Of a stretch of 64,000 bases of DNA, positions 1,583 to 41,316 are shown piece after piece (within the stretch, counting starts at the first letter, position 1; every line of letters starts with the position of its first letter). Both the position numbers and the translations under genes were made by a program. Origin of the DNA: Squalus acanthias (Eukaryota); the NCBI GenBank assembly GCA_030390025.1, contig CM059429.1:150102001-150166000 (forward strand). Direction: 5' to 3'. The notes beneath the pieces are model-generated. The model was given only the letters and a program-made list of their open reading frames with translations. It had not been told where the DNA came from and made no database searches.

Positions 1583-3497
1583 ACATAACATAAGAAATAG
1601 GAGCAGCAGCAGGCCATTCGGCCCCTCGAGCCTGCTCCGCCATTTAATGAGATCATGGCTGATCTGATTTTGGCCTCAACTCTACTTTCCTGCCCGCTCC
1701 CCATAACCCTTGACTCCCCTGTTGCTCAAAAATCTGTCTATCTCAGCCTTGAATATATTCAATGGCTCAGCTTCCACAGCTCTCTGGGGTAAATAATTCC
1801 AAAGATTCACGACCCTCTGAGAGAAGAAATTCCTCCTCATCTCCATCTTAAATGGGCGACCCCTTATTCTGAGACTATGCTCCCTCGTTCTAGACTCCCT
1901 TCATAGGGGAAACATCCTCTCTGCATCTACCCTGTCCAACCCCCCTCAGAATCTTATATGTTTCAATAAGATCACCTCTCATTCTTCTAAACTCCAATGA
2001 GTATAGGCCCAACCTGCTCAACCTTTCCTCATAAGACAACCCTTCCATCCCAGGAATCAACCTAGTGAACCTTCTCTGAACTGCCTCCAATGCAAGTATA
2101 TCCCTCCTTAAATAAGGAGACCAAAACTGTACGCAGTACTCCAGGTGTGGTCTCACCAGCGCCCTGTACAGTTGTAGCAAGACTTCCCTACTTTTATAAT
2201 TCATCCCCCTTCAAATAAAGGCCAACATTCCATTTGCCTTCCTAATTACTTGCTGCACCTGCATGTTAACTTTTTGTGTTTCATGTACGAGGACACCCAA
2301 ATCCCTCTGTACCGCCGCATTCTGTAGTCTTTCTCCATTTAAACAATATTTTTCTTTTCTATTTTTCCTACCAAAGTGGATAACTTCACATTTTCCCACT
2401 TTATACTCCATCTGCCAAATTCTTGCCCACTTACTTAACCTATCTATATCCCTTTGCAGACTCTTTGGGCTGGATTTTGCCAATGGGGAGCTTTTGGAGG
2501 CGGGACTCCCACTTGTCGGGTTTCAGTCCCGCCTCCATCAACTTCTGGCCAACCCACACTATTTTCCCTTGATTGACCTTGTTAAGCCCGCCCAGCTTAA
2601 GGGAAAGCCAGTTACAGAGCTGTCAAACACTGACATTCTCTGTAGTTTGATGAGATCTTGAATTCAACACCTCATCAAACCTCTTTCTTTTGCAGAAATT
2701 AGATTGTTGTTGCATTGGAGAATGCAACGGCCATCTGTCATCTCTGCCACAGAGGTCCGAGACTCTCCGCATACCCAACCCTTGAAGCCTGCAGGAAGAA
2801 ACAAAGGTAAGTAAACTTTTTCTAACACTTTCCACTTACCTCTCCACATTTGCACCCATCACTTACCTTCACAGCGCACTTTTGCACCCCTCCGATCCCC
2901 GCAGACCCACTACTTGCCTTGGTGATCCTGGCGGGGTTCGGAGCCTTCGGGAAGCCCACACTTGTGTGGGCAAAATGGGGATAATCCTCTTATCTGCCTG
3001 TTAACTACCTGTTAACAGGCAGTTAAGTGGCTGTAATCCCCTTCCCGCCTCCAAGGAGATGGGACCCGACGCGGGTCGGCTACCCGCCTCCTGGCAAGAT
3101 GGCACGGAGGCGGGTTGGGCACCCGCCCCCAGATTCTGCCATTTTCCTGGTAGTCCCGCCTCCCCAGGGCTGGCAAGATCGCGCCCTTTGCGTCCTCCAC
3201 ACAACTTGCTTTCCCACCTATCTTTGTATTATCAGCAAATTTGGCTACAATACACTCGCTTCCTTCATCCAAGTCATTAATATAGATTGAAAATAGTTGA
3301 GGCCCCAGCACTGATCCCTGTGGCACCCCACTAGTTACAGATTGCCATCCTGAAAATGACCCATTTATCCCGACTCTCTGTTTTCTGTTAGTTAGCCAAT
3401 CCTCTGTCCAATCTAATATATTACCCCCAACACCATGAGCTCTCATCTTATGCAGTAACCTTTTATATGGCACTTTGTCGAATGTCTTTTGGAAATA
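1583..3497 (-). mobile_element. CR1 LINE, 5'-truncated (RT through 3' UTR), interrupted by a MITE at 2467-3186
   Basis: ORF pieces FQKTFDKVP..., [36 protein letters not shown]; 3' end with (cttatgtt)-type tail at about 1583. Confidence 0.95.
2467..3186. mobile_element. Harbinger-type MITE (GGAGGCGGG family)
   Basis: Ends gggctggatttt / aagatcgcgccc, 3-bp TSD TTT, and the CR1 sequence resumes on both sides; internal sequence shared with at least 8 other copies. Confidence 0.9.
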
Positions 3498-4448
3498 ACA
3501 AAACACATTGTAATTGTCTGGCAGTGCATTAATTCAGCCCATTAGCCTTGGAACTATTTCTGCTGCATAATTCATTCTATGATTACATTTACTTTGAGGC
3601 GAGTAATATAGCCAGGTTTGAAAGTTGTAGCGTAAGACTTCAAACTCTGGTGCCTAAAACATGGATGTAATTTATTTAATTTTTAGTGTGTAACCTTATT
3701 TGCACTTTGAATGTGGTTACACTGTCACATTTGTGCCATTGCAAAGCAGTTTCCAATTTGGAGCAATATAAGAGTGATAATAAAACTAATTTAGTACATC
3801 CAACTATTCTGCTATGTAGAAATGGCAAAAAATATTTTTTATCTGTGCTGCACTTACGCTCATTCTTGAGGGAAGTGAGGGCTCGAGTGCATAGAATACC
3901 TTGTAAATCAGGATTTTGCTCTGCTGTCGTTCAGCCGTTTTCAACAATAATTGCACACTCAACAGCTGGATTAACGAAGTCTGGGAGATTTACGCAAGTT
4001 AAGTGACTGTTCAGCTGCCGGAGAAGTGTTAAAGGATCATTACTGCAGCTGTGTTATGATTGCCTGCTATTTGATCATTATCCCTACCTAAATCTTTATT
4101 TCAGGAATTGTACCTTTCAAAAACATGCATTTCCAGAGTTTCGTCAGTGCTTCATGAATATCAAGGAAAACGTCGGCCTCTCCTGCTTTTTTGAGGAAAA
4201 TAAAAATTTTGAGCAATGCTGACTAAACTAACTGCAGTAGTAAGGTTTAATATTGCTGGGTTTGATTGCTGAGTTTTCTTACTTGGGGTTTAAAATTGTC
4301 AGTCAAATTAGATCATTCTCATTGCTGATCAGAGTGAGCCAAGTTTTCTGCTTTGACTTCAAAATGTGACAGACTGTTAACTCATTTCTCCACCTTCCAC
4401 AAATGGTACCTGGAGCAATGGGAGTAAATCTGCTAATTAACACCTTAT

Positions 4449-4735
4449 CCATCTACCCTCTCAGCTGGACGTAAAAGATCCCATGGCACTATTTTGAAGA
4501 AGAGCAGAGGATTTCTCCTGGTGCCTGGCCAACATTTTATCCCTCAAACACCACTAAAAACTGATCATTATCTCACTGCTGTTTATAGGAGCTTGCTGTG
4601 TACAAATTGGCTGTAGCTTTTTCTACACTACAGCAGTGACTACAATTCAAAAGTACTTCACTGGATGTGCTGAAGTGCTACGGGACATCCTGAGATCACG
4701 AAAGGTGCTATATAAATGCCGGTTCTTTTTTTCTT
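4449..4735 (+). mobile_element. DeuSINE (SacSINE1-like), 5'-truncated
   Basis: Deu-domain core taaaagatcccatggcactattttgaagaagagcag...cctggccaac; tail gaaaggtgctatataaatgc; homologous to 56705-56870 and 60995-61323. Confidence 0.75.
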
Positions 4736-4884
4736 CTTAGCAAGCCAATCAGTCCAAATATGTTTACCCTTTCTAAAGAATTCTGTCTGTCCCTTTGTAC
4801 TGGCCTGGTCCTACAGTACTGTAATCATTACTGTTGTCTCTGTTTGCTTAATGTAACTTGTTGGTGGCTTCTCGCTTGCAACTC

Positions 4885-5719
4885 GGGCTGGATTTTGTCA
4901 ATGGGGAGCATTTGGAGGCGGGACTCCCACTTGTCGGGTTTTAGTCCCGCCTCCATCGACTTGTGGCCAACCCACACTATTTTCCCTTGATTGACCTTGT
5001 TAAGCCCGCCCAGCGGGCTGAGCAGGCCAATTAAGGGAAAGCCGGTTACAGGTGACGTCAGTGAGTGACGAGAGCTTTTGACCGATGAATTGTCATCGTT
5101 TGAGAGCTCTGTGAAGCTGTCAATCACTGACAATCTGTCCTCTAACTTCAGTCCTGTCACTCAGGCTCAGTTAGAGAGCTCTCCTGAGCAGCAAGCAGAA
5201 GGCTGCAGCTTTTGACAGTTCAGCGGCCATTCTGCTTTCTGTGCTGGTGAGCTGAGGGACTCCCGAGACCTGAAGGGAGGAAGCCTGCAGGAAGAAGTAA
5301 AGGTAAGTAAAACTTATTAAAACACTTTACACACACCTCACACAATTACCTCTGCACACTTGCACCCATCACTCACCTGAACACCGGACATCTCGGCCCC
5401 TCCGACCCCCGCAGACCGACGGCCCGCCTCGCTGACCCTGGCGAGGTTCGGAGCCGTCGGGAAGCCCAAACTTCAGGGCTCAAAATGGGGATTCTCAAAA
5501 AAAACTGCCTGTTAACTATCTGTTAACAGGCAGTTAATTGGCACTAATCCCCTTCCCACCTCGAGGAGACGGGACCCAGTGCGGGTCGGGTACCCGCCTC
5601 CTGGGAAGATGGCACGGAGGCGGGTTGAGGGCGGGATGGGTACCTGCCCCCAGATTCTGCCATTTTCCCGGCAGTCCCGCCTCCAAACCCGCCTCCCCAG
5701 GGCTGGCAAAATCGCTCCC
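4885..5719. mobile_element. Harbinger-type MITE (GGAGGCGGG family)
   Basis: Ends gggctggatttt / aaaatcgctccc; homologous to other copies; flanks (ctc / ata) do not form a TSD. Confidence 0.85.
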
Positions 5720-5744
5720 ATATGAGCCAAGAATTAGAAACTTA

Positions 5745-6396
5745 GGGGGCGATTTTGTGACTGGGGGCGCGTTGGAGGCGGGACTGCTGCTTGTCGGGTC
5801 GATGTCCCGCCTCCATCGATTTGTGGCCAACCCACACTATTTTCCCTTGATTGATCTTGTTAAGCCCACTCAGCAGGCTTAGCAGGCCAATTAAGGGAAA
5901 GCCGGTTGCAGAGCACGTCAATGTATGACGTTTCACAAGACAAAAACTTTTGACAGATGAATTGTCATTGTTTGACAGCTCTGTGAAGCTGTCAAACAGT
6001 GACATTCTCTGCAGTTTGATGAGGTCTTGAATACAAGACCCCCATCAAACTTCTTTCTTTAACAGAATTGAGATGGTTGTTGCATCTGTGACTGCAACGG
6101 CTGCCTGTCAATCCTGACGCGGGGGTCCGAGAGTCTCCGCATACAAACCAACTGAAGCCTGCAGGAAGAAACAAAGGTAAGTACACTTTTAAAAACACTT
6201 TGCACTTACCTCAGATACTCACCTCTCCATTCTTGCACCCATCACTTACCTTCACACCACATTTTTGGACCCCGCAGACCCACTACTCGCTTCGGTGACC
6301 CTGGCGGGTTTTGGAGCCTTCGGGAAGCCCGCACTTGTGACGGCAAAAAAGTCTCGCCTCCATACCTGCCTCCCCAGGGCTGGCAAAATCGCCCCC
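5745..6396. mobile_element. Harbinger-type MITE (GGAGGCGGG family, internally deleted)
   Basis: Terminal inverted repeats (TIRs) gggggcgatttt / aaaatcgccccc; TSD TTA. Confidence 0.92.
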
Positions 6397-8099
6397 TTAG
6401 GTAGTGATTTTCCTTGTCATTTCTGGTGCACTTAACGTGCAGGAATAGCAGAGACCTGCAATTGCTTCTGACTGCTTCTCACAATGTCGGACCACCAACA
6501 GATTTTCTAAATGACTGAAGTTGTGCGTTCTTCTCTGGCTTGGTGCCAGGCCCTGCTGCCCTCTAGGCACAGATGGTGCTTGAGTGGCCCTAATTCTGTA
6601 CAAGTGAAGGTATTAGAGAGTGAAGTGAAATAGCCAAGCATTGTTGCTGCCTTACTTGTTTGTCCCCAGTCTGCTGCTGAAGAGTGCAGGCTGAACTGTC
6701 TTTTTAAAGGCTGCACAGAAGCTTCCAGGCAGTCCAGCTTCTTACACCGGTTTTAGACCAACGACTGCACCAATGCGAATGCAAAATGAGCAGACCCAGG
6801 AAACTCGTGTTAACTCCCTCGAGACGCACCCGGCAGACGCAACACCTTTTTAAAGAGGCAACAGTGGTGTAACTCATTTCAAGGAAACTCTGGGCCTTAA
6901 TTTCTTATCAAGTTCTTTAAAAGCTCTTGTGAAGAGATCTTTAGCTGGAGCGAAGCTCATTTTTACTCCTCAGAATGTAATCAGTAATTTAGACGTAGAA
7001 TAGAAATTCTCTGTCATTTAAATTTTAAAGTTAAACTACTGAGGGCAGGGTTACTGTAAGCAGGGAACAACCTTCCCTGTACTTACTGTACTAAAAGACA
7101 GAGATCTAAGGTGTATAACATTAGACCACCAGGGTTTGGAAGGTACACACCCATTAAATGCAGGAAGGCTCCAATGGACAGTCCTGTTTGAAATTTGTAT
7201 ATACTCTCATTAAATTGATGGAGATTGTGATACATTTTTCCTTTCTACACCACCCCGCCCCCCACAGCCTGTTGGTAAAATGGACGCAAATCATGACACA
7301 TGGTCATTTACAGATGCAACACTGAATTGTTGTTACAAGGACACCTGTTCCACCGCCCCCCCGCCTGCCCATTCCCAATCACCACAAGAGATTGACTTAC
7401 CATTAATGTAATGATTCTACTGCCTGATGCCAGCTGTAATGGAGGCAATCTATTTTCCTGGATAAAAAATGGCATTATGCCCCCCAGTCTGCACGGTAGA
7501 TATCACTGGTACCTGCTGCCATGCCATCTGTCCCCAACACTATTGTACTTGTCCTGACATTTTTTTTAACTAAAAGGCACGTAGTTAAGTTCTCACGTTA
7601 TCTCTGGGAATATTTAAGTGTGAGGCGTATGAGACTGGACATTGGAGGAAACAGGATGGAGAAGATCATAAATGATCTGAAAAAAAAACAGACAGGCAAG
7701 AAGAAAGGTCAGCGAGAAAAAGAAACCCAGCAATGCAGGAAAGCTGCAATTTAAAATGTAATCAGTGAAAGTTTTACTACGAGCTGAGGGTAATTTAAGA
7801 TGGACTGGGAGTCTGTGTTTTAGAAATAAGGGTCATGTCTGAGGTGATTGGGAGGATAGGGATTCCATCATGCGTGTGTTGGCAGTAATGGTGGTAGGAG
7901 TGGGCACAAGTTATTAAACTTCCTTTAATTTGCCTGCCTTCTGTGCGTTTGGAAAACACTTCAAAATCACAAGTGTGAAACATAACCTTACAACGATGTC
8001 AAATCAGCTGACAGTTAGCGTCCTGACTACTTGCTCCAGCTCGGCTTGGTGGAAAAAGGTGGGGGTAGAATTTTTTTTTTAATGTAAGAAATAAGCTGG

Positions 8100-8560
8100 G
8101 AAGCAGGGCGGAGAACGAGAGCTCCTTTTTCAGACTTTATTTTCCCCCTTCATCACTTGGGGTCTCTGCACCGTGGACCAAACTTTGTCCAAGAGCACAC
8201 GCAAGTAACTTACTCCTGGAACTCTGCCATTTTGCTGCAGGCAGCCAATGGGANNNNNNNNNNNNNNNNNNNNNNNNNNNNNNNNNNNNNNNNNNNNNNN
8301 NNNNNNNNNNNNNNNNNNNNNNNNNNNNNNNNNNNNNNNNNNNNNNNNNNNNNNNNNNNNNNNNNNNNNNNNNNNNNNNNNNNNNNNNNNNNNNNNNNNN
8401 NNNNNTTCCAAACAGACTATACCTAGACTGCATCCCCCCAGCTCTGGGGCGGAGTGCCATGCGTCTGCAGCCATGATTTGGAGGCGAGGGGAGGGAGGGT
8501 ACTCCAATTTATTGCTAAAAATGGCTGAGTCGTCCTCCGGCTCGCCCGATATGTTTTTCA
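8100..8560. promoter_or_regulatory. Candidate bidirectional promoter spanning an assembly gap
   Basis: Locally GC/CpG-richer unique sequence; CCAAT at 8245; GC boxes gggcggag at about 8106 and 8447; outward-facing YY1-like AAAATGGC motifs (minus strand at about 8227-8234, plus strand at about 8518-8525); minus-strand donor GA|gtaagt at 8214/8213. Confidence 0.45.
8254..8405. other. Assembly gap (152 N)
   Basis: Run of N in the sequence. Confidence 1.
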
Positions 8561-29235: not shown

Positions 29236-29682
29236 AATCAGACCCCCATGACATCAGAATCAGAGAATATGCTGAAATGTGGCATCTGAAGTATGGCTAC
29301 TCAAATCTGATAGGATGAGTGCTCTATCTGTAAGACTTTTAAGGGGGAGAAATTCGGTATCGCCCCGTGCGGGGGCGCTAAATTTTGAAATCTTGAAAAA
29401 TTAGCGGCAGGTGCTAATGAGTCTGAGGTTTCCCTAAATTGGCTGTTGGTGCTCCTGGAAAGAGCTGGAGCGCTAAATCAAGCGCTAATGACCTAAACAG
29501 GGCGCTACAGGGCCGCTACCAGCAGAGCGATAATGAATTTCAGGTGCAATGCAATCGGGAATGATCCTTCACACTGGCCCCTTCCAGCTCTTAACGAGAA
29601 GGATGCATCATTGTGCAGATCCTCATTATCAGCATTGCTGGCTGTGAAGGTGACCTGCAAGCAACTCAATCCCCTGATCGTG

Positions 29683-32180
29683 ATGGCTGATCCCACTCAC
29701 AGGGAGAGAGCTCGTCGTTTCACGAACGAGGCATTGGTCGCGGGAGTGAAGCGAAGGAGGGCAGTGTTGTTACCGGACACTGGAAGGAGGCCATTGCCCC
29801 AGGAATTCAGGGCAATGTGGAGGGAAGTGGCCCAGGAGGTCTCGGCCAGTAGTGTGGGCATACACAGCCTGACACAGTGCCGCAAGAAATTCAACGACCT
29901 CACTCGGGTGGTCAAGGTGAGTACATGCTTCAACAGGTCCTACATACCAGCATCTGAACCTTAGGGCTGGATTTTGATACTGGGGCGGGTTGGGGTCATG
30001 TTATCCACTTTTCGTGTTATCCACCCGTCTGCAATTGGATGTGGGAGATTGATGCAATTTTCACCTAATTGGGCAATTGAGTTCCAGCATGTGGGAACCC
30101 ATGAACCAATTAGTGTTTTCAGTCTGAAAGCCGCCTCTGATGATGTCATCATTGCTGCTGCATTGAATGTCTTCAGAGACTGCCTGGCCTTTGCTGTGAG
30201 AGGACCTGGATATATCTGAATATGAGAAAGAGAGAGAGAGACTGGCTTTTGGTGTGAGAGGACCTGAAGGCAAAATGCACTGATAGTCAGCTTTCGAAAT
30301 GTGCTCCCGCCAGGTTTCACATTCGTGTTTCAGAACAGGCGTGCTTCACGTAGAAAAAGAGTTAAAATCACAAAGGCCTTTCAAAATGGCATTTTGAGCC
30401 AATTTAGTGCTTGTTAAGGGCCTTAACAGCCTATCCCGCCTCTTTAAAGGCGGGACGGAGTCGGGACCAGTAGACACGATTTAATGAAAATTGCGTGGAG
30501 GCGGACTTGTGCCCGCCCGCCAGTTTTCGCAATTTTAACCCCCCACATGCCTCCAAACCCGCCTCCACGGGTCAATGAAAATCCAGCCCTTAGTCTGTAC
30601 ACACTGCACAAACCACCACACCCCCACCACTCATCCACCAAGCATCCGCACCTATTCAAACTCACATCCACATCTCACGCCTTGCCTACAATCACAGCTA
30701 TTCAACTACAGCAGGCATTTCTCCCAAACACATAGCTGGACTCTGACTCACACACATTCGTTTCTCTTGCAGGCCAAGATGGCCCACAATAGGAGGGAGC
30801 AGCAGAGAACAGGCGGGGATGATGTGCAGCTCCAGCAGCTCTCAGACCTGGAGGAGCGAGTGCTGCGACTCATTGGGCAGCAGGTGGTGGGCGGCGTGGC
30901 CATCGGCGACGTCGACTTCCTTGGGGGCAACAACGGTATCTTCAGCCCCTCTCCTTCTCTCATCCTACTTCCCCCTCACACCACAAGCCTTTCCCACTTT
31001 CCTGCTCCTGATACTGTCTGCATTGCTTGCTCCATTCCTGCCCCCCTCCCGTCATCTTAATGTGAGTCTTGTGCCTTTATGCTTTCAGCGAATCAGCAAC
31101 CAGATGACCAGTCTGTCCCTGAGCCTCCCACTGAGAGTGAGGAAGGAGAAGAGGAGGAGGAGCAAAGCACCGCGTCACTGCATCTCTCACCTGCAGGCAC
31201 CACCTCAGATATTGGCACTACAAGATCTTTAGAGGCACTGGGTGATGCACCGGGGACGAGCGGGCTGCAGCAAGGCCAGGGGTAAAGGGTAGCTCGGGAG
31301 CCAGTTCCCCGGAGGGCGAGTTTGTGTGCGAGTTCTGCTGCGCAGGACTCAGATGAGGACCTCGATGGGGAGGCGTTCACAAGAAGGGTGATGGCCATGC
31401 ACACCGAGATGATAGGTGCAATGGCAAGGGTGCCCGAGAGCCTGTCGGCAATGGTGAGGAGCGTGGAGTAGTCCGCCTCCCAATATTGCACAGAGCTCTG
31501 CGCACACCATGGAGCCCATCCTTGGCAGTCTGCAAAGGATAGTAGACTCCCTGAGAGACCGTGGGGACCCAGACCTCATGCCGCGTGTCATGGGCGATGT
31601 GACAGCTTTCATTGCAGCACACGCGGAAGCTATGCAATGTCTTAGTGCTGTAATGCAATCAGTGGTTGATGCCATCCAGTCTCAGACTGCTCTCATGCAG
31701 TCTCAGCTTAATGCCACGAAAGCTCTGACTGCTGCCATCGTCGCTGGGACCACCACAGTCCACCGGGTATCTCACGGTGTCGCAGCAGCCCAGCAATCCA
31801 TGATGTAGCAGATTGGTGGGGATGCTGAGGTGCTGCCCCGGGGGAGTGGCAGTGTGTCAGTGGAGCAGGAAGCTGCTGTCCTATCTCAGGATGACCGCAT
31901 TCCTGGCACTGCCACTCCACCATTTCCCTTGTCGCTGCCTGTCATCCAGCCAGCCCAGACTGCCGCTGCCCATCCTGAGGTGGTGCAGTGTACAGCCTGG
32001 CCTTCCAGGCCCAGAGCTGGTCGAGGGCATCCTGCAAGGCCATCTGTAGTTTCTGGGACCAACACTCAGCAGCCTCCCACCAGCCCTGCTGCAGCCACTG
32101 GGGAGACACTAAGTAGGAGCACTAGATTAGGAAAAGGCACTGTAAAGAGGGCAAGTAAGGGTTTGCACAAGGGTGATTAG
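29683..32180 (+). pseudogene. Harbinger Myb/SANT-like protein, 3 exons (29683-29916, 30773-30935, 31089-32180), disrupted
   Basis: MADPTHRERARRFTNEAL...WREVAQEV...TQCRKKFNDL followed by gtgagt; GT-AG junctions keep the reading frame; exon 3 has in-frame stops (about 31283, 31469, 31806) and a +1 frameshift near 31480. Confidence 0.85.
29964..30589. mobile_element. Harbinger-type MITE in intron 1 of the Myb gene
   Basis: TIRs gggctggatttt / aaaatccagccc; TSD TTA. Confidence 0.9.
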
Positions 32181-33554: not shown

Positions 33555-34966
33555 ATGTAACCCAAATGAAAGTGATAAATTTTTCTCAGCCAGAACACTC
33601 CTTCCAGTTGAGAACGCTCAAATCACTCAAAACGCCTGTTTGCTTTAGTCAAACAGACAAGGCAGTGTTCTTTGCCAACAAAGAAAAACGGAAATTGACG
33701 CCTTTATCTAGCGCTCCTCCAGCGCTCACCCAACTGCATTCTGCCTCCTCTACCTGTCGCTGCTAATGGCAGGCGCTCAGGCAGGGGGTGAGAGTGAATT
33801 TCAGAGCTGGGGCGCTGCGCACCCGGATGTCATCACGATCTCCGGCCGCAGGAGAGCGTGGCGCTAGTGGTTACCGCCGCCGCAAACCTCCACTTCAGTT
33901 TCGCGGGCGTCGGTACTATCGCCGCGCCCGGTCGCAAAGCCGGTAGCACCCCGCTAACGGGAGGCGCTAAGGTGCCCAATTTCTCCCCCTTAATTTATTA
34001 CTAATAGATTTCCTATGTCATTGCTCACAGTGAGTCAAAGGATATACTATTTGTAACAATAGGGTGCAATGTTAGTTAGGGTGTAACATCAGGGCCACTG
34101 ATTTACAGTGACTGAATAAATAAAATTCCATTTACTTGCCTAGTATACTGGGATTTTTACAGTGCTTTGGGGATCTATTTTATTGGCTCTATCAAATATT
34201 TTGTGAAAACTATAAATGAGTGGCCAGTACATGTAAATCCTTTATCCTTTACTATTTTTAAAGCTGAGGCTACACTGCAAGATTTAGGTTTTAGAGGTGG
34301 GTACCTGGTATATACCTGGAAGTTAATCGGGGGAAGGTTAGTGGCACTGGGAGTGGTGCTGAACTTTGGTGGCTCTGGAGGGAATTATCTTTGGGTTTGG
34401 AAGAACTGGGGTGGGGATCCTGTGGAGTGACAGCAATGAGGTGGAGGTGCTGGAGTTTGGCAGCCTGGTGGAGGGCGGGAGAGAAATCCTATTGAGGCTT
34501 GGCAAAACTAGTGAGTGGAATGTGGGGTTTGGCTCATTGGTGGATTCCTCGAGTCTGAGTAAAAAAGATAATCGATTATATTTAAAAGTTTAGTTGGAAA
34601 CCTACCCAAATTCATTGTTGAATTGTATTCAAATCATTTTCAAAAACACAAAGGCCGCGATTTCGCCAGCGGAGGCGGGATCGGGGCAGGAGAGGTGGTT
34701 GGCGGGTTCTGGTCCCGTTCCCGGCTACAGCCGCTCTGTAAAAAGGATTTTCCATTAGTAGAGCTTGTTAAGTCCACCCTGCGGTGTTCCCGGCCAATTA
34801 AATGGAGGCGGGTCTGATGACGTCGTTTGATGACGCGTCATCAGCCGGTTTCCTTAAAGGTACCATGTCCACATTCATTTTGTGGAGATGCCGGTGTTGG
34901 ACTGGGGTGGACAAAAATGAGAAGTCACACAACACCAGGTTATAGTCCAACAGATTTATTTAAAAT

Positions 34967-35002
34967 TACAAGCTTTCGGAGCTGTCGCTCCTTCTTCAGG
35001 TA
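34967..35002 (-). ncRNA. Minimal hammerhead ribozyme motif
   Basis: Reverse complement of 35115-35150. Confidence 0.8.
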
Positions 35003-35114
35003 GGGTAGCTGTGAGAGAATCTCCCAGAATTCACAATATAATGTAGGGAAAGATTTGAATACATTTTTTCTGTGTTTATATTGTGAATTCTGGGAGATTC
35101 TCTCACAGCTACCC

Positions 35115-35150
35115 TACCTGAAGAAGGAGCGACAGCTCCGAAAGCTTGTA
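35115..35150 (+). ncRNA. Minimal hammerhead ribozyme motif
   Basis: tac CTGAAGA a ggagc gaca gctcc GAAA gctt gta. Confidence 0.82.
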
Positions 35151-35948
35151 ATTTTAAATAAATCTGTTGGACTATAACCTGGTGTTGTGCGACTTCTCAC
35201 ATTCATTTTGACAGTTGTGCTGTCAGTGTTCTGCAGCATTGAGGTGCTGCAAGCACTGCACAAAGGTGCACGGCTGCACTCAGGCTCTCCCGTGACTTAT
35301 GGAGGGAGTCACAGCACGCTTGGAGGTTCTCTTCCCTTCCAAGGGCGGAGGAGACCTCCCCAGGACACCATCGCAGCCTGGTTGCACATTGCACAGGAGG
35401 GAAAAAGCAGGGATGTTGTCAGGAGTACCTGGCTGCAGTGGTGCAAACCTTTCAATGATCTCAGTAGATCACAAAACGTTACTCCAAATCCACACTCAAC
35501 CTCATACTGCTGTGCCACTCATCACATCCCCATCACTCTGCCTTCTCTACCCTACTCCTGCATACCCTTACTCACACCAACTTACCTTGTACCTCCACCC
35601 ATCCCTCTCTAGCTATATTATTACTTCCCCATCTTACTAGCTACCCCTCTCACTCACCCTCATCCTAGTCCAATCATACCAACTAACAACACACAAGGGT
35701 AGGCACTTGGATGTTTTATGCAATGTTCATGTAAATTTTCTGTTAATGTGTTGTCAAACATTGAAATCTTTATTTTCAACACTTTGCCTTATTGTACAGA
35801 TAAGTGGAAGTGTCTTAGTGAGTTGCAATGAATGGTGAGACATAACGGTATCCCCGCAATGGTGATGAGTGTGAAAGGAATGGCTTGGTCATTGTAGGAA
35901 TGCTTTATGATGATGGTGTGGGGTAGTGTTAACCTGGTGCATCATGTG

Positions 35949-36142
35949 TGTCGTAAGAATGAGCCTTACGCGTGGTGAACTTAAAGTAAGCTTTAATCAA
36001 CTAAAAAGGTGCTACATACAAAAGAGGTCTTACTCTATGCCTCTCCAGGATCCAACTAATCAGTCCAGTATTTATCCTGGACTAATCACAGGAAGTGATG
36101 CAATAAAGTTCGAGTCACAGGAAGCTGTATGGTGTTACCACA
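35949..36142 (-). repeat. 3' LTR
   Basis: Identical to 40218-40411 by eye; preceded on the minus strand by the polypurine tract. Confidence 0.97.
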
Positions 36143-36160
36143 TTCTCCCCCCCCAAAAGA

Positions 36161-39100
36161 TTAGGAGGCCGGGATGCTCCCTCCATTTCGTAGCCGCTGG
36201 ACGAGCGAGAGCCGCACCCGTTTGGGTTCTCGTTGCGGTAGAGGGCCCCTAGCCCGTTTACCCACCGCGGGCCGTGGACCAGAGTCCGAGTGATCCAGCC
36301 CGCTCTGTGAGGGGTCAGGACGATCCTGACTGTGTACTGGTGCCCGAACGGGTGTCGGGCAGGGCTGTGGCAGATCCGTTTCCGAGCGTACTGTACGGGG
36401 TGGATCGTGGCTGCGCGTGCGAGCCCCGACGGGCTCATAGTCAGTCTGCCCCAGGTCGGCACGCTGGAGTGAGGTACCAGCCGGCGTCAGATCCAGATCG
36501 TGATGAGAGGCACCTGGCGAGCCCAGAGATGTGCCTGGTACAATATCATCCCCTGGTGTCCCTCTATGTTTCGGCGGGCAGGGAGCCAGATCCCGCAATG
36601 ACACGGTAGATTCCCGACCGTCAGGATACCGAATATAGGCGTAGGTAGGGTTGACGTCAGTGAGCTCAACTTCATCTACCAGGGGGTCATTCTTAGATGC
36701 CCGGACATATCTTCGGAGTAGCACTGGTCCCGGTGTAGTCAGCCACGACGGGAGAGATATCCCATAGGATGAGCGACGCTGAAATCGGAAGAACCGTTCA
36801 TGAGGCGTCGTATTTGTGGCGGTCGAAAGGAGGGACCGTGTGGAGTGTAATGCGTCTGGAAGTACTGCTTCCCATTGCTGGTTGGGTAGGCCCCGAGATC
36901 TCAAAGCCAGACGTACCGCATTCCAGATGATAGCGTTAAAACGCTCGACTTGCCCATTCCCGACCGGATGATAAGGCGTCATTCTGCTGGCAGCAATACC
37001 CCGTTCCGAGAGATAGGCCTTGAGTTCTCCTGACATAAAAGAAGGGCCCCGATCCGAATGAACATAGGATGCCATGCCACAGAAAGCAAATACCTGCTCA
37101 AGGCAGCTGATAACTGTGGTTGTCAGCATATTGGGGCAGGGAAAGGCAAACGGAAAACGGGAATACTCATCGACCATGGTCAACAGATAAGTGTTGCGAG
37201 TTGAAGAGGGCAACGGCCCCTTAAAATCGATGCTAAGCCGTTGCATTGGCTGGGTCGCATGTATGAGTATACCACCCGAGGGGCGGAAAAACTGAGGTTT
37301 CAATTCCGCACAGACTCTGCAGTCCGAGCACATCTTCTTTACATCCCCAGTAGAGAATGGGAGATTTCGGGACCGCACGAAGTGTAGCATGCGAGTAACG
37401 CCCGGATGACACAACCCATCATGGATGTCTACGAGCGTAGAGGGTGCCATGGCGGAGCAGAATGCTCGTGAGAGGGTATCCGGAGCCACATTCTCCTTGC
37501 CAGGTCGATAGTGGATGGTGTAACCAAAAGAGGCCAATTCCAGCCGCCAAAGCTGGATTTTATTATTTTTAATTTTGGTCCGTTTTCGATTATCGAGCAT
37601 GAAGGCGACCGATCGCTGGTCCATGATTAAGGTAAAGTGCTGGCGAGCTAGGAGATGACTCCACTTCCGTACTGCCTCTATGATGGCTGTAGCTTCCTTC
37701 TCGACTGGAGGATAATGTAGCTCAGCCCCTTGAAAAGTCCTGGACAAAAATGCCACCGGACGACCTTCCTGATTCAGAGTGGCCGAGATCGCCACCTCCG
37801 AGGCATCACACTCAACAACAAAAGGAAGACTCTCATCGATGGAGTGAAGAGCCGCTTTCTCCAACTGTTTTTTCAGGAGGTTAAAGGCTGCAACAGCTGC
37901 TGTGTCTAGTGGGAATGTGCTGGCCTTCAGTAGAGGTTGGATTAGGTCCGAGAAGTTAGGAATCCATTTAGCATAGTATGCAAACAGGCCGAGGGTCCGG
38001 CGCAAACAGGCCGAGGGTCCGGCGCAAGGAGGCCGGATTCTTAGGTGGCGGGAGTTCTTGGAGTGGGCGAAGCCTTTCAGGGTCAGGTTTAATGATGCCA
38101 TTGCCCACACAATAGCCAAGGATGTTGATGGTTGGTTGTGACTCAATGGATTTAGCCGCATTTAATGTCAAATTACGGTGCTGGAGTGCATCCCAAAATC
38201 GTTGGAGATTGACGTCATGTTCCCGCTGATTGCGACCTGCGACAGTAATATTGTCCAGATAAGGAAACGTATCCTTCAAGTCTTCCTGTTTGACCAGGTC
38301 ATCCATTGCTCGCTGGAAGACAGCCACTCCATTAGTGACCCCAAAGGGGAGGCGACGAAATTGATACAGCCATCCATTGGCTTCAAAGGCCGTATACTGC
38401 TTGTCTGAGACCTTCAAGGGTACCTGATGATAGGCACTTTTCAGATCATATGTTGAGAACACCGTGTACTCAGCCAGTTTATTAACCATATCATCGATGC
38501 GCGGCAATGGGTATGCGTCCAAGTCCGTATATTGATTGATGGTCTGTGAATAGTCAATGCACAGCCGTTTCTTGTGAGGTTGTAGAGGGTTCTTAACAAT
38601 AACGACCTGGGCGCGCCATGGCGACGAACAAGGCTCGATGATATCCTCTGCTAAAAGCCGAGAAATCTCAGCCGCAATAAAAGACTGGTCTTCCTGACTG
38701 AAACGTCGTGACTTTGTTATAATCGGTTTGCATCGAGGAGGGATACTGGTAAACAGTGAGGGTTCATCCAGTGAAGCTGCTGACAATGCACAGAACGGTA
38801 ATCGAGGTCGTATATTAGAAATAGTGAGTTCAGGTTTGGATCCGCCGAACTCAATGGTGAGCTTCTTATGCTGCTTTTGAAAATCCAGCCCTAAGATAAG
38901 ATCACTACATAAATCCTTGAGCACCGAAAGCCGAGTGGAGGGATACCTGTGACCATTAAGTGTTATTTCAACCATACAAAAGCCAGAAATTCTGGTATTA
39001 AGTGATGACTGAGCCATCGCAATTGCCTGGTCCGATGGGAAAACATGTAGCTTTAACTCTGCAACAATCTGTTCCCTAATGAAACTATCAGTGCTACCTG

Positions 39101-40139
39101 AGTCAATTAAGGCATCTAAAGTATGTCCATTAATTGATGCTTTTGTAGCTGCATGGAATAGGTTCTGAGGACAAGCAGCTGTAATTGGTGTCGTTGCACA
39201 AAGAGTGGCTGAAACTCTAGGTGTGTTTCTTCGAGAGGAAACCCGAGAGGAAGCACGATAGATGTTAGCCGGAACATCTTGATAGGCCCTTACCGGGGCA
39301 GTTCGGTAGGACTTAGCTTGATAAGCCCTCATAGAGGCTCTTGATAGGCAAACCTTTGCAAAATGACCCTTTTTGTTGCAATGACTGCAAAACGCATTGC
39401 GAGCAGGGCAGAATTTCCGAGGGTGAAACTCATCACCACAAAAGAAGCATTTCTTAGATTGCCAAGAGGCTGCCACAGTGGGGTCATCATCCTCTTCATC
39501 AGTGAAGTCATCAGATTGATCGTCAGGGATAAAGACCTCCCTAATAGAGTTCACCTGTGGCCTCTTAAATTGCCTGACTGTAGTTAAGGCAGTAGACCGA
39601 GGTCTGGGCACTGTATAAAGGTCTGCATTTCTTTTTGCCAGATCTAGAGAGCAAGCCATGTCATAAGCTCTCTGAAGCTCAAGTGTCTTACTTTCCAGTA
39701 GACGCTGGCGTATAAATGGGGAGGCAAGCCCGCAGATGAAAGCATCACGGATCATTTCTTCACGGTACAGCTCAGCTGAGGCCGCCTGAAAGTTACAGTC
39801 CATACTAAGTCTGCGAAGCTCTTGGAGGAATTTATCAATGGATTCCTCCGGCCCTTGTTGGGCTGTAGCTAGTAGATGTCTGGCATAGACCTCATTCGGT
39901 GTCTTAGTATATAGTCTCTTAAGCGTCCGAATTGCCTCCTCGTAACTGCCCCATTCCTCCACATACTGAAATACATTCGGGGTGACACAGTTGATGAGTA
40001 TCCGCAACTTTGAGTCATCATCAGCCTTGCAATACTCAAGAAAATTGTCAAACGTGCGATACCAGTGTTTCCACACCTTACCGGCTGCTGGGGTGTTTGG
40101 GTCCAAGTCAAGACGCGATGGTTTAAGGATGTTTTCCAT
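36161..40139 (-). CDS. Gypsy gag-pol polyprotein (frameshifted by a 22-bp duplication at 37981-38024)
   Basis: Start MENILKPSRL; two CCHC knuckles; protease LIDSGS; RT YDLKSAYHQ, LPFG, YLDN; RNase H CDAS, EKEA; integrase HHCC, IDFKGP, SDRG, NGQVER; no chromodomain seen. Confidence 0.93.
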
Positions 40140-40217
40140 GATGGGTGATTCCCTGGATCCTTCATTCCGAGTTCGTCCAAAAAGTTTGAGTGCGAAGTTT
40201 TCCAAAGTTGATTAAAT

Positions 40218-40411
40218 TGTCGTAAGAATGAGCCTTACGCGTGGTGAACTTAAAGTAAGCTTTAATCAACTAAAAAGGTGCTACATACAAAAGAGGTCTT
40301 ACTCTATGCCTCTCCAGGATCCAACTAATCAGTCCAGTATTTATCCTGGACTAATCACAGGAAGTGATGCAATAAAGTTCGAGTCACAGGAAGCTGTATG
40401 GTGTTACCACA
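40218..40411 (-). repeat. 5' LTR
   Basis: Identical to the 3' LTR; gataaata TATA-like motif and attaaa poly(A)-like motif on the element's sense strand. Confidence 0.97.
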
Positions 40412-41316
40412 ATGTGGCAACCAGGGTGTACAGCATCAAGTGAAGTAAATCTGGCCATGGTGATGCCATCACTGGCCTCCCGGGCAGCAATGTGGTCAGG
40501 TGCTGATGCCCTGTGTCCTGTGCAGCATCAGGTGATTGCGGAGAAGGTTGGTGTTGCTGTTGCTGATGTTGGTATGCCTGGTGATGTTGGTGTTGGGGCT
40601 GATCATGGAGGGATTCTGAGGACCAAGGTAAGATTTTTTCAAGTGCACCTATGTTGCTGGAATGGATGGCAGCTGAAGTTGAGATGACAGAAGCGATCTG
40701 TCAGTGGTGAGAGAGCTTGCTCCAAGGAGGTGACAGTGGATGGAGAGTTTACTCCAAACACTTCCAAACTCAATACAGCGCCAAAGTGTCTTCCAAGTCC
40801 TGAAGGCTCAAGCTTCTGACATTGAAAAGTGACCAGCTGTGAAATGGTAGCTTTCATACCACGTTTGCAGCTGTCACCTATTCACAGCAATGGGGAGACA
40901 TAGAGAACCCGACCTACTTACCTGATGTGATCTCCGAACGATGGGAACCCCGTTAAAAATGTGGTAAAATAGAAAAGGGCTGGCAAAATAGTAGTTAACA
41001 AGCACTTAACAAGCAGTTAACTATCTTAAATGCCTCCCCCGCCGCATGGTGTCGGGTCTGTTCTGAAATCGCAGACCCGACACTTTGGAAACTTACATGG
41101 AGGCGGATTCACAGCGGGTTCCCAACCCACCCTCAATCATTGCAATTTTGACAGCGGACCCGCCTCCAAACCCGCACGCTGAGCGCCGACAAAATTCAAC
41201 CCAAAATGAAATACTGTTATGGACAGACATATAATTTGACTTTTAATCTAAGAAAAATGAATAATTGTTTATGTTTTGAACATAAACAAAAACTGCAACA
41301 AATGTATTAAAAAAAG

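Follow-up and report, generated by a model that had tools for sequence, protein, structure and literature searches.

The primer-binding site (PBS) of a minus-strand LTR retrotransposon (4,463 bp, 40411-35949), located in the 64,000-nucleotide stretch of Squalus acanthias DNA analysed here (the window), is complementary to a segment of the element's own LTR. By analogy with Tf1, the yeast element for which self-priming is proven, we consider it likely that this element primes minus-strand synthesis by folding of its RNA, cleavage by RNase H at the edge of the duplex, elongation across U5, and a transfer onto the 3' R. Comparison of related sequences indicates that the signature is real, family-wide, and clade-wide, and points to a variant of the known Tf1-type mechanism that is well supported by co-variation.

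The window copy is a recently inserted Ty3/gypsy retrotransposon. It shows the Ty3/gypsy (Metaviridae) domain order gag-protease (PR)-RT-RNase H-integrase (IN) together with TG...CA LTRs, a polypurine tract, and a target duplication (Table 1), and the 5' and 3' LTRs are identical at 194/194 positions. For one relative (P0005), the best PDB match was Ty3 Gag-Pol/RT. An Rfam search of the element gave no match. The initial annotation had described a double-CCHC gag, a 5-bp target-site duplication, and no chromodomain, and these were borne out by translation, by CACAT at both ends, and by Pfam, respectively. Elsewhere in the window, an RT fragment was seen at 3012-3533 (-), a weak Myb/SANT-like match at 29497-29964 (+), by inference a Harbinger-type remnant, and an inverted repeat at 34918-35199 with 124-nt arms that are 99% complementary and lie 34 nt apart; the last of these has the appearance of a single repeat element represented by two fragments in opposite orientation.

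Table 1. Features of the Squalus acanthias element, in window coordinates
Feature	Position	Strand	Remarks
5' LTR	40218..40411	-	194 nt, TG...CA
3' LTR	35949..36142	-	segment copy present, no PBS downstream of it
Target-site duplication CACAT, upstream copy	40412..40416	-	5 bp
Target-site duplication CACAT, downstream copy	35944..35948	-	5 bp
Polypurine tract adjoining 3' LTR	36143..36154	-	
gag (two CCHC arrays), protease, and RT (YLDN): first part of gag-pol frame	37968..40142	-	translation, Pfam
Stop-to-stop frame with RNase H and integrase	36161..38161	-	without chromodomain, without SH3_Tf2-1 module
22-nt tandem repeat, 2.5 copies	37980..38035	-	site of reading-frame break in window copy
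LTR segment complementary to PBS (predicted self-primer)	40261..40271	-	last six bases ATTAAA, a poly(A)-signal variant
PBS, 11 nt	40206..40216	-	starts 1 nt past LTR end, no TGG
5-bp hairpin from first base past segment	40248..40260	-	beside predicted cut site
U5 hairpin, 7 bp including one G-U, 5-nt loop	40221..40239	-	just within LTR end
TATA-like GATAAATA in inverted-repeat loop	40338..40345	-	function inferred only

It had been proposed from the window sequence that the element lacks a tRNA PBS and instead carries an 11-nt PBS perfectly complementary to its own LTR. This was confirmed: the CA end of the LTR is followed by one A (40217) and then by an 11-nt stretch (40216-40206) whose exact reverse complement is found at 40271-40261, and no TGG is present. 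Three accompanying details also held, namely a mismatch on each side of the duplex, a U5 hairpin (40239-40221) between its arms, and the overlap of the segment with the hexamer ATTAAA. Shuffled LTRs gave a match of at least 11 nt to the 22 nt after the LTR in 15/20,000 cases. In predicted folds, the PBS/LTR duplex forms whatever RNA start is chosen, and 10/11 pairs have a predicted pairing probability of 0.85-1.0 when the RNA starts upstream. The folding energy of the region alone is unremarkable (z -1.06; whole leader, z -1.74); therefore, the case rests on position and co-variation and not on stability.

The segment and the PBS were identical in 30/30 copies, the set read being those that best match the window, and the junction pattern had 2,372 genome matches at ≤2 mismatches (~2,370). 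The family is young and very abundant, with >2,000 copies. A second family in the host genome (~69% DNA identity) displayed a 13-nt duplex in 6/6 copies read. This second family, L111-L116, is likewise young and of the same clade; it has 215-nt LTRs and open frames of ~1,315 aa and carries a clear TATAAATA; in its member L111 the U5 hairpin is similar, with its letters changed. L220, a different Gypsy element from this genome with 32% RT identity, carries an ordinary TGG primer site. L220 (reverse strand, ~4190-8537) is CsRN1-like, with 249-nt LTRs, and lies inside a tRNA gene cluster region; the tRNA-Trp site of the CsRN1-type element GyRex2, as given in the portion of PMC3587641 consulted, resembles its TGG site. 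In assembled contigs of runs X1, X2, and X4, a variant LTR subfamily was seen over 40218-40369, distinguished by 11-13 differences and by an additional base at the segment's upstream edge. One low-depth contig of X4 also contained many A-to-G changes upstream of 40271, resembling hyper-editing.

Relatives were gathered by a protein search (725 relatives, 120 listed) and by a metagenome scan, which confirmed 573 loci, 80 of which were kept. Named relatives among the 120 listed of 725 were from crustaceans and cnidarians, and no relative was found in viral contigs. An inverted repeat of 11-19 nt preceded gag in 38/49 relatives with enough upstream DNA, while control stretches in ORFs gave inverted repeats of 4-11 nt, with one at 11. 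Among the 11/49 relatives below 11 nt, five had a mismatched duplex and four were without the needed upstream DNA or gag start; the remaining two, L083 and L086, represent one locus in which no duplex and no LTR pair were found. At ~300-420 in L083/L086, which are close by RT, CA, one base, and then TGG were seen at the gag start; the copy may be decayed, or it may have switched to tRNA priming at this site.

Pairing of each PBS with its own LTR and with the LTRs of other families was compared in 12 families whose LTR ends were taken from 5'/3' BLAST repeat ends, independent of the inverted repeat. Extra copies of the same family were dropped, as were L034 and L035 (3' LTR cut by the contig end) and L068 and L069 (repeat end different from LTR end); the repeats of L057 and L075 also end at a contig end. 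Own-LTR pairing was found in all 12 families and extended over 10-19 nt, with a mean of 14.3, whereas cross-family pairing averaged 6.2 nt and reached at least 10 nt in 6/132 combinations, all among three families sharing one PBS. None of 100,000 permutations matched the observed pairing total, a figure that is not a strict probability, since the families are related. Ten different PBS sequences were present among the 12 families, TGG began none of them (0/12), and the 3' arm of the duplex started 1 nt past the LTR end in 9/12. Matches of at least 10 nt at an offset of 0-5, as in the published self-primer criterion (PMC6317226), were found in 11/12 families by longest perfect match and in the twelfth with one mismatch; the window element lies within this range with 11 nt at offset 1. 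Letters co-vary at 9/12 positions of the duplex: columns 4-12 show two to four pair types with both sides changing, columns 1-3 are nearly always A-U, and 140/144 cells are paired. The initial annotation had named loss of the complementarity in relatives as refuting and had proposed a search for co-variation; the complementarity is kept, with 12/12 families pairing with their own LTR via 10 PBS sequences, and the co-variation is present.

Single compensated changes were also surveyed among close copies. According to the part of PMC11042837 consulted, a complete copy of the PBS terminates the 3' end of roughly half of the Tf1 cDNA, so a change in a self-primer could enter the PBS without a second mutation. 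One matching base was changed in both LTRs and the PBS of L043 relative to six sisters (~98% identity), which fits primer copying, and single compensated changes also separate L068 from L074 (93%) and L033 from L034 (83%). Uncompensated changes occur in the metagenome families too. Within the window's family, no compensated LTR change accompanied 19 PBS variants (0/19) and no matching PBS accompanied 15 variant 5' LTRs (0/15, among 30 of 44 matches read), in a scan that covered PBS bases 3-11 and 4/11 LTR positions. Copying of the primer back into the PBS should readily generate compensated variants, and the 0/19 and 0/15 count against this. The lack of compensation fits post-insertion decay from few source copies and gives no support to primer copying. 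In four elements of this family a segment variant was present in both LTRs with the PBS unchanged, as is expected for first-generation errors under any model.

The anatomy of the site was compared in 24 families anchored on the inverted repeat itself. The segment ends in TAAA in 19/24 families and in canonical AATAAA or ATTAAA in 13/24; GCCT or ACCT follows it directly in 15/24, and the loop measures 24-79 nt. A helix opens at the first loop base in 14/24 families, compared to 2.9 expected when the first four loop bases were held and the rest shuffled. The conserved junction thus sits where a cut would be needed.

The segment is present in both LTRs, and sequence alone cannot say which copy anneals; its A-run end (TAAA, 19/24 families) also lies near the expected RNA 3' end, so that the copy in the 3' LTR, rather than that in the 5' LTR, might supply the primer that anneals to the PBS. 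We regard this as quite unlikely: the 5' copy lies 44 nt away from the PBS, onto which it is predicted to fold with a probability near 1, the conserved junction hairpin (14/24) fits a local cis structure, and use of the 3' copy as primer would consume the R needed for strand transfer.

A regulatory duplex, hiding the 5' poly(A) signal or serving packaging or translation while another RNA primes, would account for the coincidence of a canonical hexamer with the 3' end of the segment in 13/24 families and for its pairing in the predicted 5' LTR fold, where its unpaired probability is 0-0.17. The ATTAAA of the 3' LTR has a predicted unpaired probability of 0.1-0.4 and so is not clearly open, which weakens the masking part. 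Masking cannot be the whole story, because 11/24 families retain the duplex without a canonical hexamer in it; in L033, AATAAA lies 23 nt from the LTR end, outside the duplex. The 3' arm begins 1 nt past the LTR end in 9/12 families, at the position required for primer binding, and no alternative site for a primer remains. A purely regulatory role is very unlikely on these grounds, and self-priming is preferred over masking alone because of this fixed position. The initial annotation had offered self-priming or poly(A) masking as alternatives. Both are kept here, with self-priming as the better explanation and masking of the 5' poly(A) signal as a likely second role of the duplex, and only their mutual exclusion is given up.

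Priming by an internal or half-molecule tRNA, in the style of Ty5 and copia, or by another host small RNA, with the LTR match being secondary, was weighed as well. Half-tRNA primers are known (PMC6317226, PMC10886601, in the portions consulted; the latter covers tRNA and half-tRNA primers), three families share a PBS core, one of them at ~47% protein identity to the window element, and the host tRNA set compared was small (70 loci, 52 calls, only 4 anticodon types). Conserved host RNAs would hardly explain 10 PBS sequences in 12 families, each fitting its own LTR. Against 23 distinct tRNA genes of the host, covering three anticodon types, PBS matches reached 5-7 nt at best, a 10-nt tRNA-Thr match is internal, starting 8 nt past the LTR end, and half-tRNA priming is reported only for Copia in the parts of PMC6317226 and PMC10886601 consulted. 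Such a primer therefore appears highly improbable. A chance inverted repeat in an AT-rich stretch, with which the regional folding z of just -1.06 would agree, is rejected in view of the 15/20,000 shuffles, the pairing in 12/12 families, and the 0/100,000 permutations.

The TATA-like motif that had been placed about 65 nt upstream was located as GATAAATA, 66 nt before the LTR segment, within an inverted repeat of 10 bp (40356-40329, - strand). The TATA box of the sister family is also flanked by a short inverted repeat. Measured from their starts, the TATA-like motifs precede the segment by 74 nt in the window element and by 90 nt in L111. A TATA-like word 25-30 nt before the segment was found in 1/25 elements, and none in the window element. 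TATA-less promoters are common, and the assembled contigs of four runs showed no transcript start, transcript end, or poly(A) tail. The motif positions hint at an internal primer, which would probably lie ~35-55 nt inside the RNA, as judged from the TATA-like motifs only, unlike the first base in Tf1; the reservation in the initial annotation that the geometry may differ from Tf1 stands. According to the consulted parts of PMC7175516, PMC4600332, and PMC5341516, the Tf1 PBS pairs with bases 1-11 of the RNA, and RNase H cleavage falls between positions 11 and 12.

Splicing signals were also considered. A spliced primer in the window element was rejected, as the available GT...AG pair spans 33 nt and its removal would break the pairing. 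A splice-acceptor-like pyrimidine tract with YAG was seen in the LTRs of L059, L072, L074, L081, L100, and L101; such tracts lie 20-45 nt before the 3' end of the segment in 6/23 families, compared to 0/22 in each of three bins further upstream. L056 and L081 have a donor-like GT farther upstream. With cis-splicing or the addition of a spliced leader, the primer could come to lie close to the 5' end of the RNA, and a self-primer could tolerate a spliced leader, since it is the 3' end from which this portion of the LTR is copied.

Minus-strand synthesis has to begin beside U5. Tf1-like self-priming was adopted because only the element's own LTR segment was found pairing there across families, with its 3' end facing U5. 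In the proposed sequence of events, 40271-40261 of the genomic RNA would fold onto the PBS at 40216-40206, closing a loop of 44 nt that holds two hairpins. As in Tf1, cleavage by the element's RNase H would then occur at the 3' edge of the duplex, adjacent to the first hairpin, leaving a new 3'-OH that points into U5; RT would copy 40217 back to 40260, and the strong-stop DNA would jump to the 3' R. In its second role, the duplex would bury the ATTAAA of the 5' LTR, while the 3' LTR hexamer would define the 3' end of the RNA, so that an overlap of roughly 10-30 nt would remain for the jump.

Placement outside the chromoviruses is suggested by two features, the lack of a chromodomain and the presence of two CCHC arrays. 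Pfam detected neither a chromodomain nor an SH3_Tf2-1 module in the window ORF or in 10/10 relatives scanned, and no chromodomain was present among the precomputed domains of the 120 listed of 725 relatives. Two CCHC arrays were found in 112/122 proteins. In an RT tree that included no named reference, 27 clade rows fell on one side of a branch (99/98) and 5 other rows on the opposite side. A search of the host genome for SH3_Tf2-1 returned retrovirus-like matches. The corresponding Chromo search gave at least 16 scattered matches from 44 candidates, and abundant chromodomain retrotransposons were not seen. The RT motif is YLDN in 82/122 proteins and YLDD in 20. In the window element, YLDN lies at 38260-38249 (- strand), with the second Asp replaced by Asn in a family of >2,000 young copies; to our knowledge, an active RT with YLDN is unusual, and a literature search on YLDN in RT found nothing relevant.

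Among known systems, Tf1/Tf2 of Schizosaccharomyces pombe, Tj1 of S. japonicus, and the Tf1/sushi group are the closest in design: the PBS after the 5' LTR complements 11 nt of their own LTR, a U5 hairpin lies between the duplex arms, and there is no tRNA-end complement. The window clade differs in lacking both a chromodomain and an SH3_Tf2-1 module, in its two CCHC arrays, and in an RT motif that is mostly YLDN; in addition, its duplex is 10-19 nt long, and its segment ends in an A-run resembling a poly(A) signal and may lie inside the RNA. Plant Copia TAR elements (Houba, Osr-1) and moss Tcn1 chromoviruses likewise have at least 10 bp complementary to the 5' LTR at an offset of 0-5 bp, but they belong to the Copia superfamily or a chromovirus clade, have plant hosts, and are predicted only (PMC6317226, in the part consulted). 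Overall, the sources, as far as consulted, report self-priming for Tf1/sushi, Tj1, and Tcn1 and predict it for plant Copia TAR (PMC6317226, PMC4600332, PMC6934838, PMC3601003). The statement that self-priming is mainly described for the Tf1/sushi group therefore stands as to where it is reported and needs widening for the Copia TAR prediction already in print (PMC6317226). Dictyostelid Skipper has neither a tRNA site nor LTR complementarity, according to the consulted part of PMC5006619.

Two CCHC arrays are usual for Mag and Micropia/Mdg3, and one for chromoviruses (PMC2577118, in the part consulted). The Mag lineage (A, B, and C clades) resembles the window clade in its two CCHC arrays, its lack of a chromodomain, and its wide occurrence in marine animals. 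Two arrays without a chromodomain are shared with Micropia/Mdg3 and are not diagnostic alone. The size of the window clade's elements (4.0-4.5 kb) and their single ORF of ~1,200 aa presumably resemble those of Cigr-1 of Ciona. Cigr-1 is classed under Mag in supplement 1 of PMC6238403, in the part consulted; primer sites go unmentioned in the consulted portions of PMC6238403 and PMC2774666, and the literature consulted in part on the Mag and Cigr-1 clades yielded no report of self-priming. Nor was a report found for any non-chromoviral animal Gypsy clade, in a search with subscription journals and Repbase notes outside it.

In the literature consulted, again in part, self-priming in Ty3/gypsy is treated as a mark of the Tf1/sushi and Tcn1 chromoviruses. 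We tentatively suggest, at somewhat less than even odds, that it arose independently in a large non-chromoviral Gypsy clade extending from corals and crustaceans to vertebrates, with an internal leader primer whose 3' end is the poly(A) signal and a cut at a conserved hairpin junction. If true, this second, animal-wide Gypsy clade would mean that self-priming either evolved repeatedly or has an earlier origin than assumed, and would explain the missing PBS annotation in many animal Gypsy families. One short sequence would then combine the roles of primer, 5' polyadenylation silencer, and 3' poly(A) signal, and in some families the part of the leader that precedes the cut would be free for splicing. 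Self-primed elements would also escape silencing by tRNA 3' fragments. Because the family is young and has >2,000 copies, the primer could be mapped directly from tissue RNA, and such mapping would show whether RNase H self-cleavage depends on the Tf1 arrangement, in which the primer occupies the capped 5' end, or accepts an internal segment.
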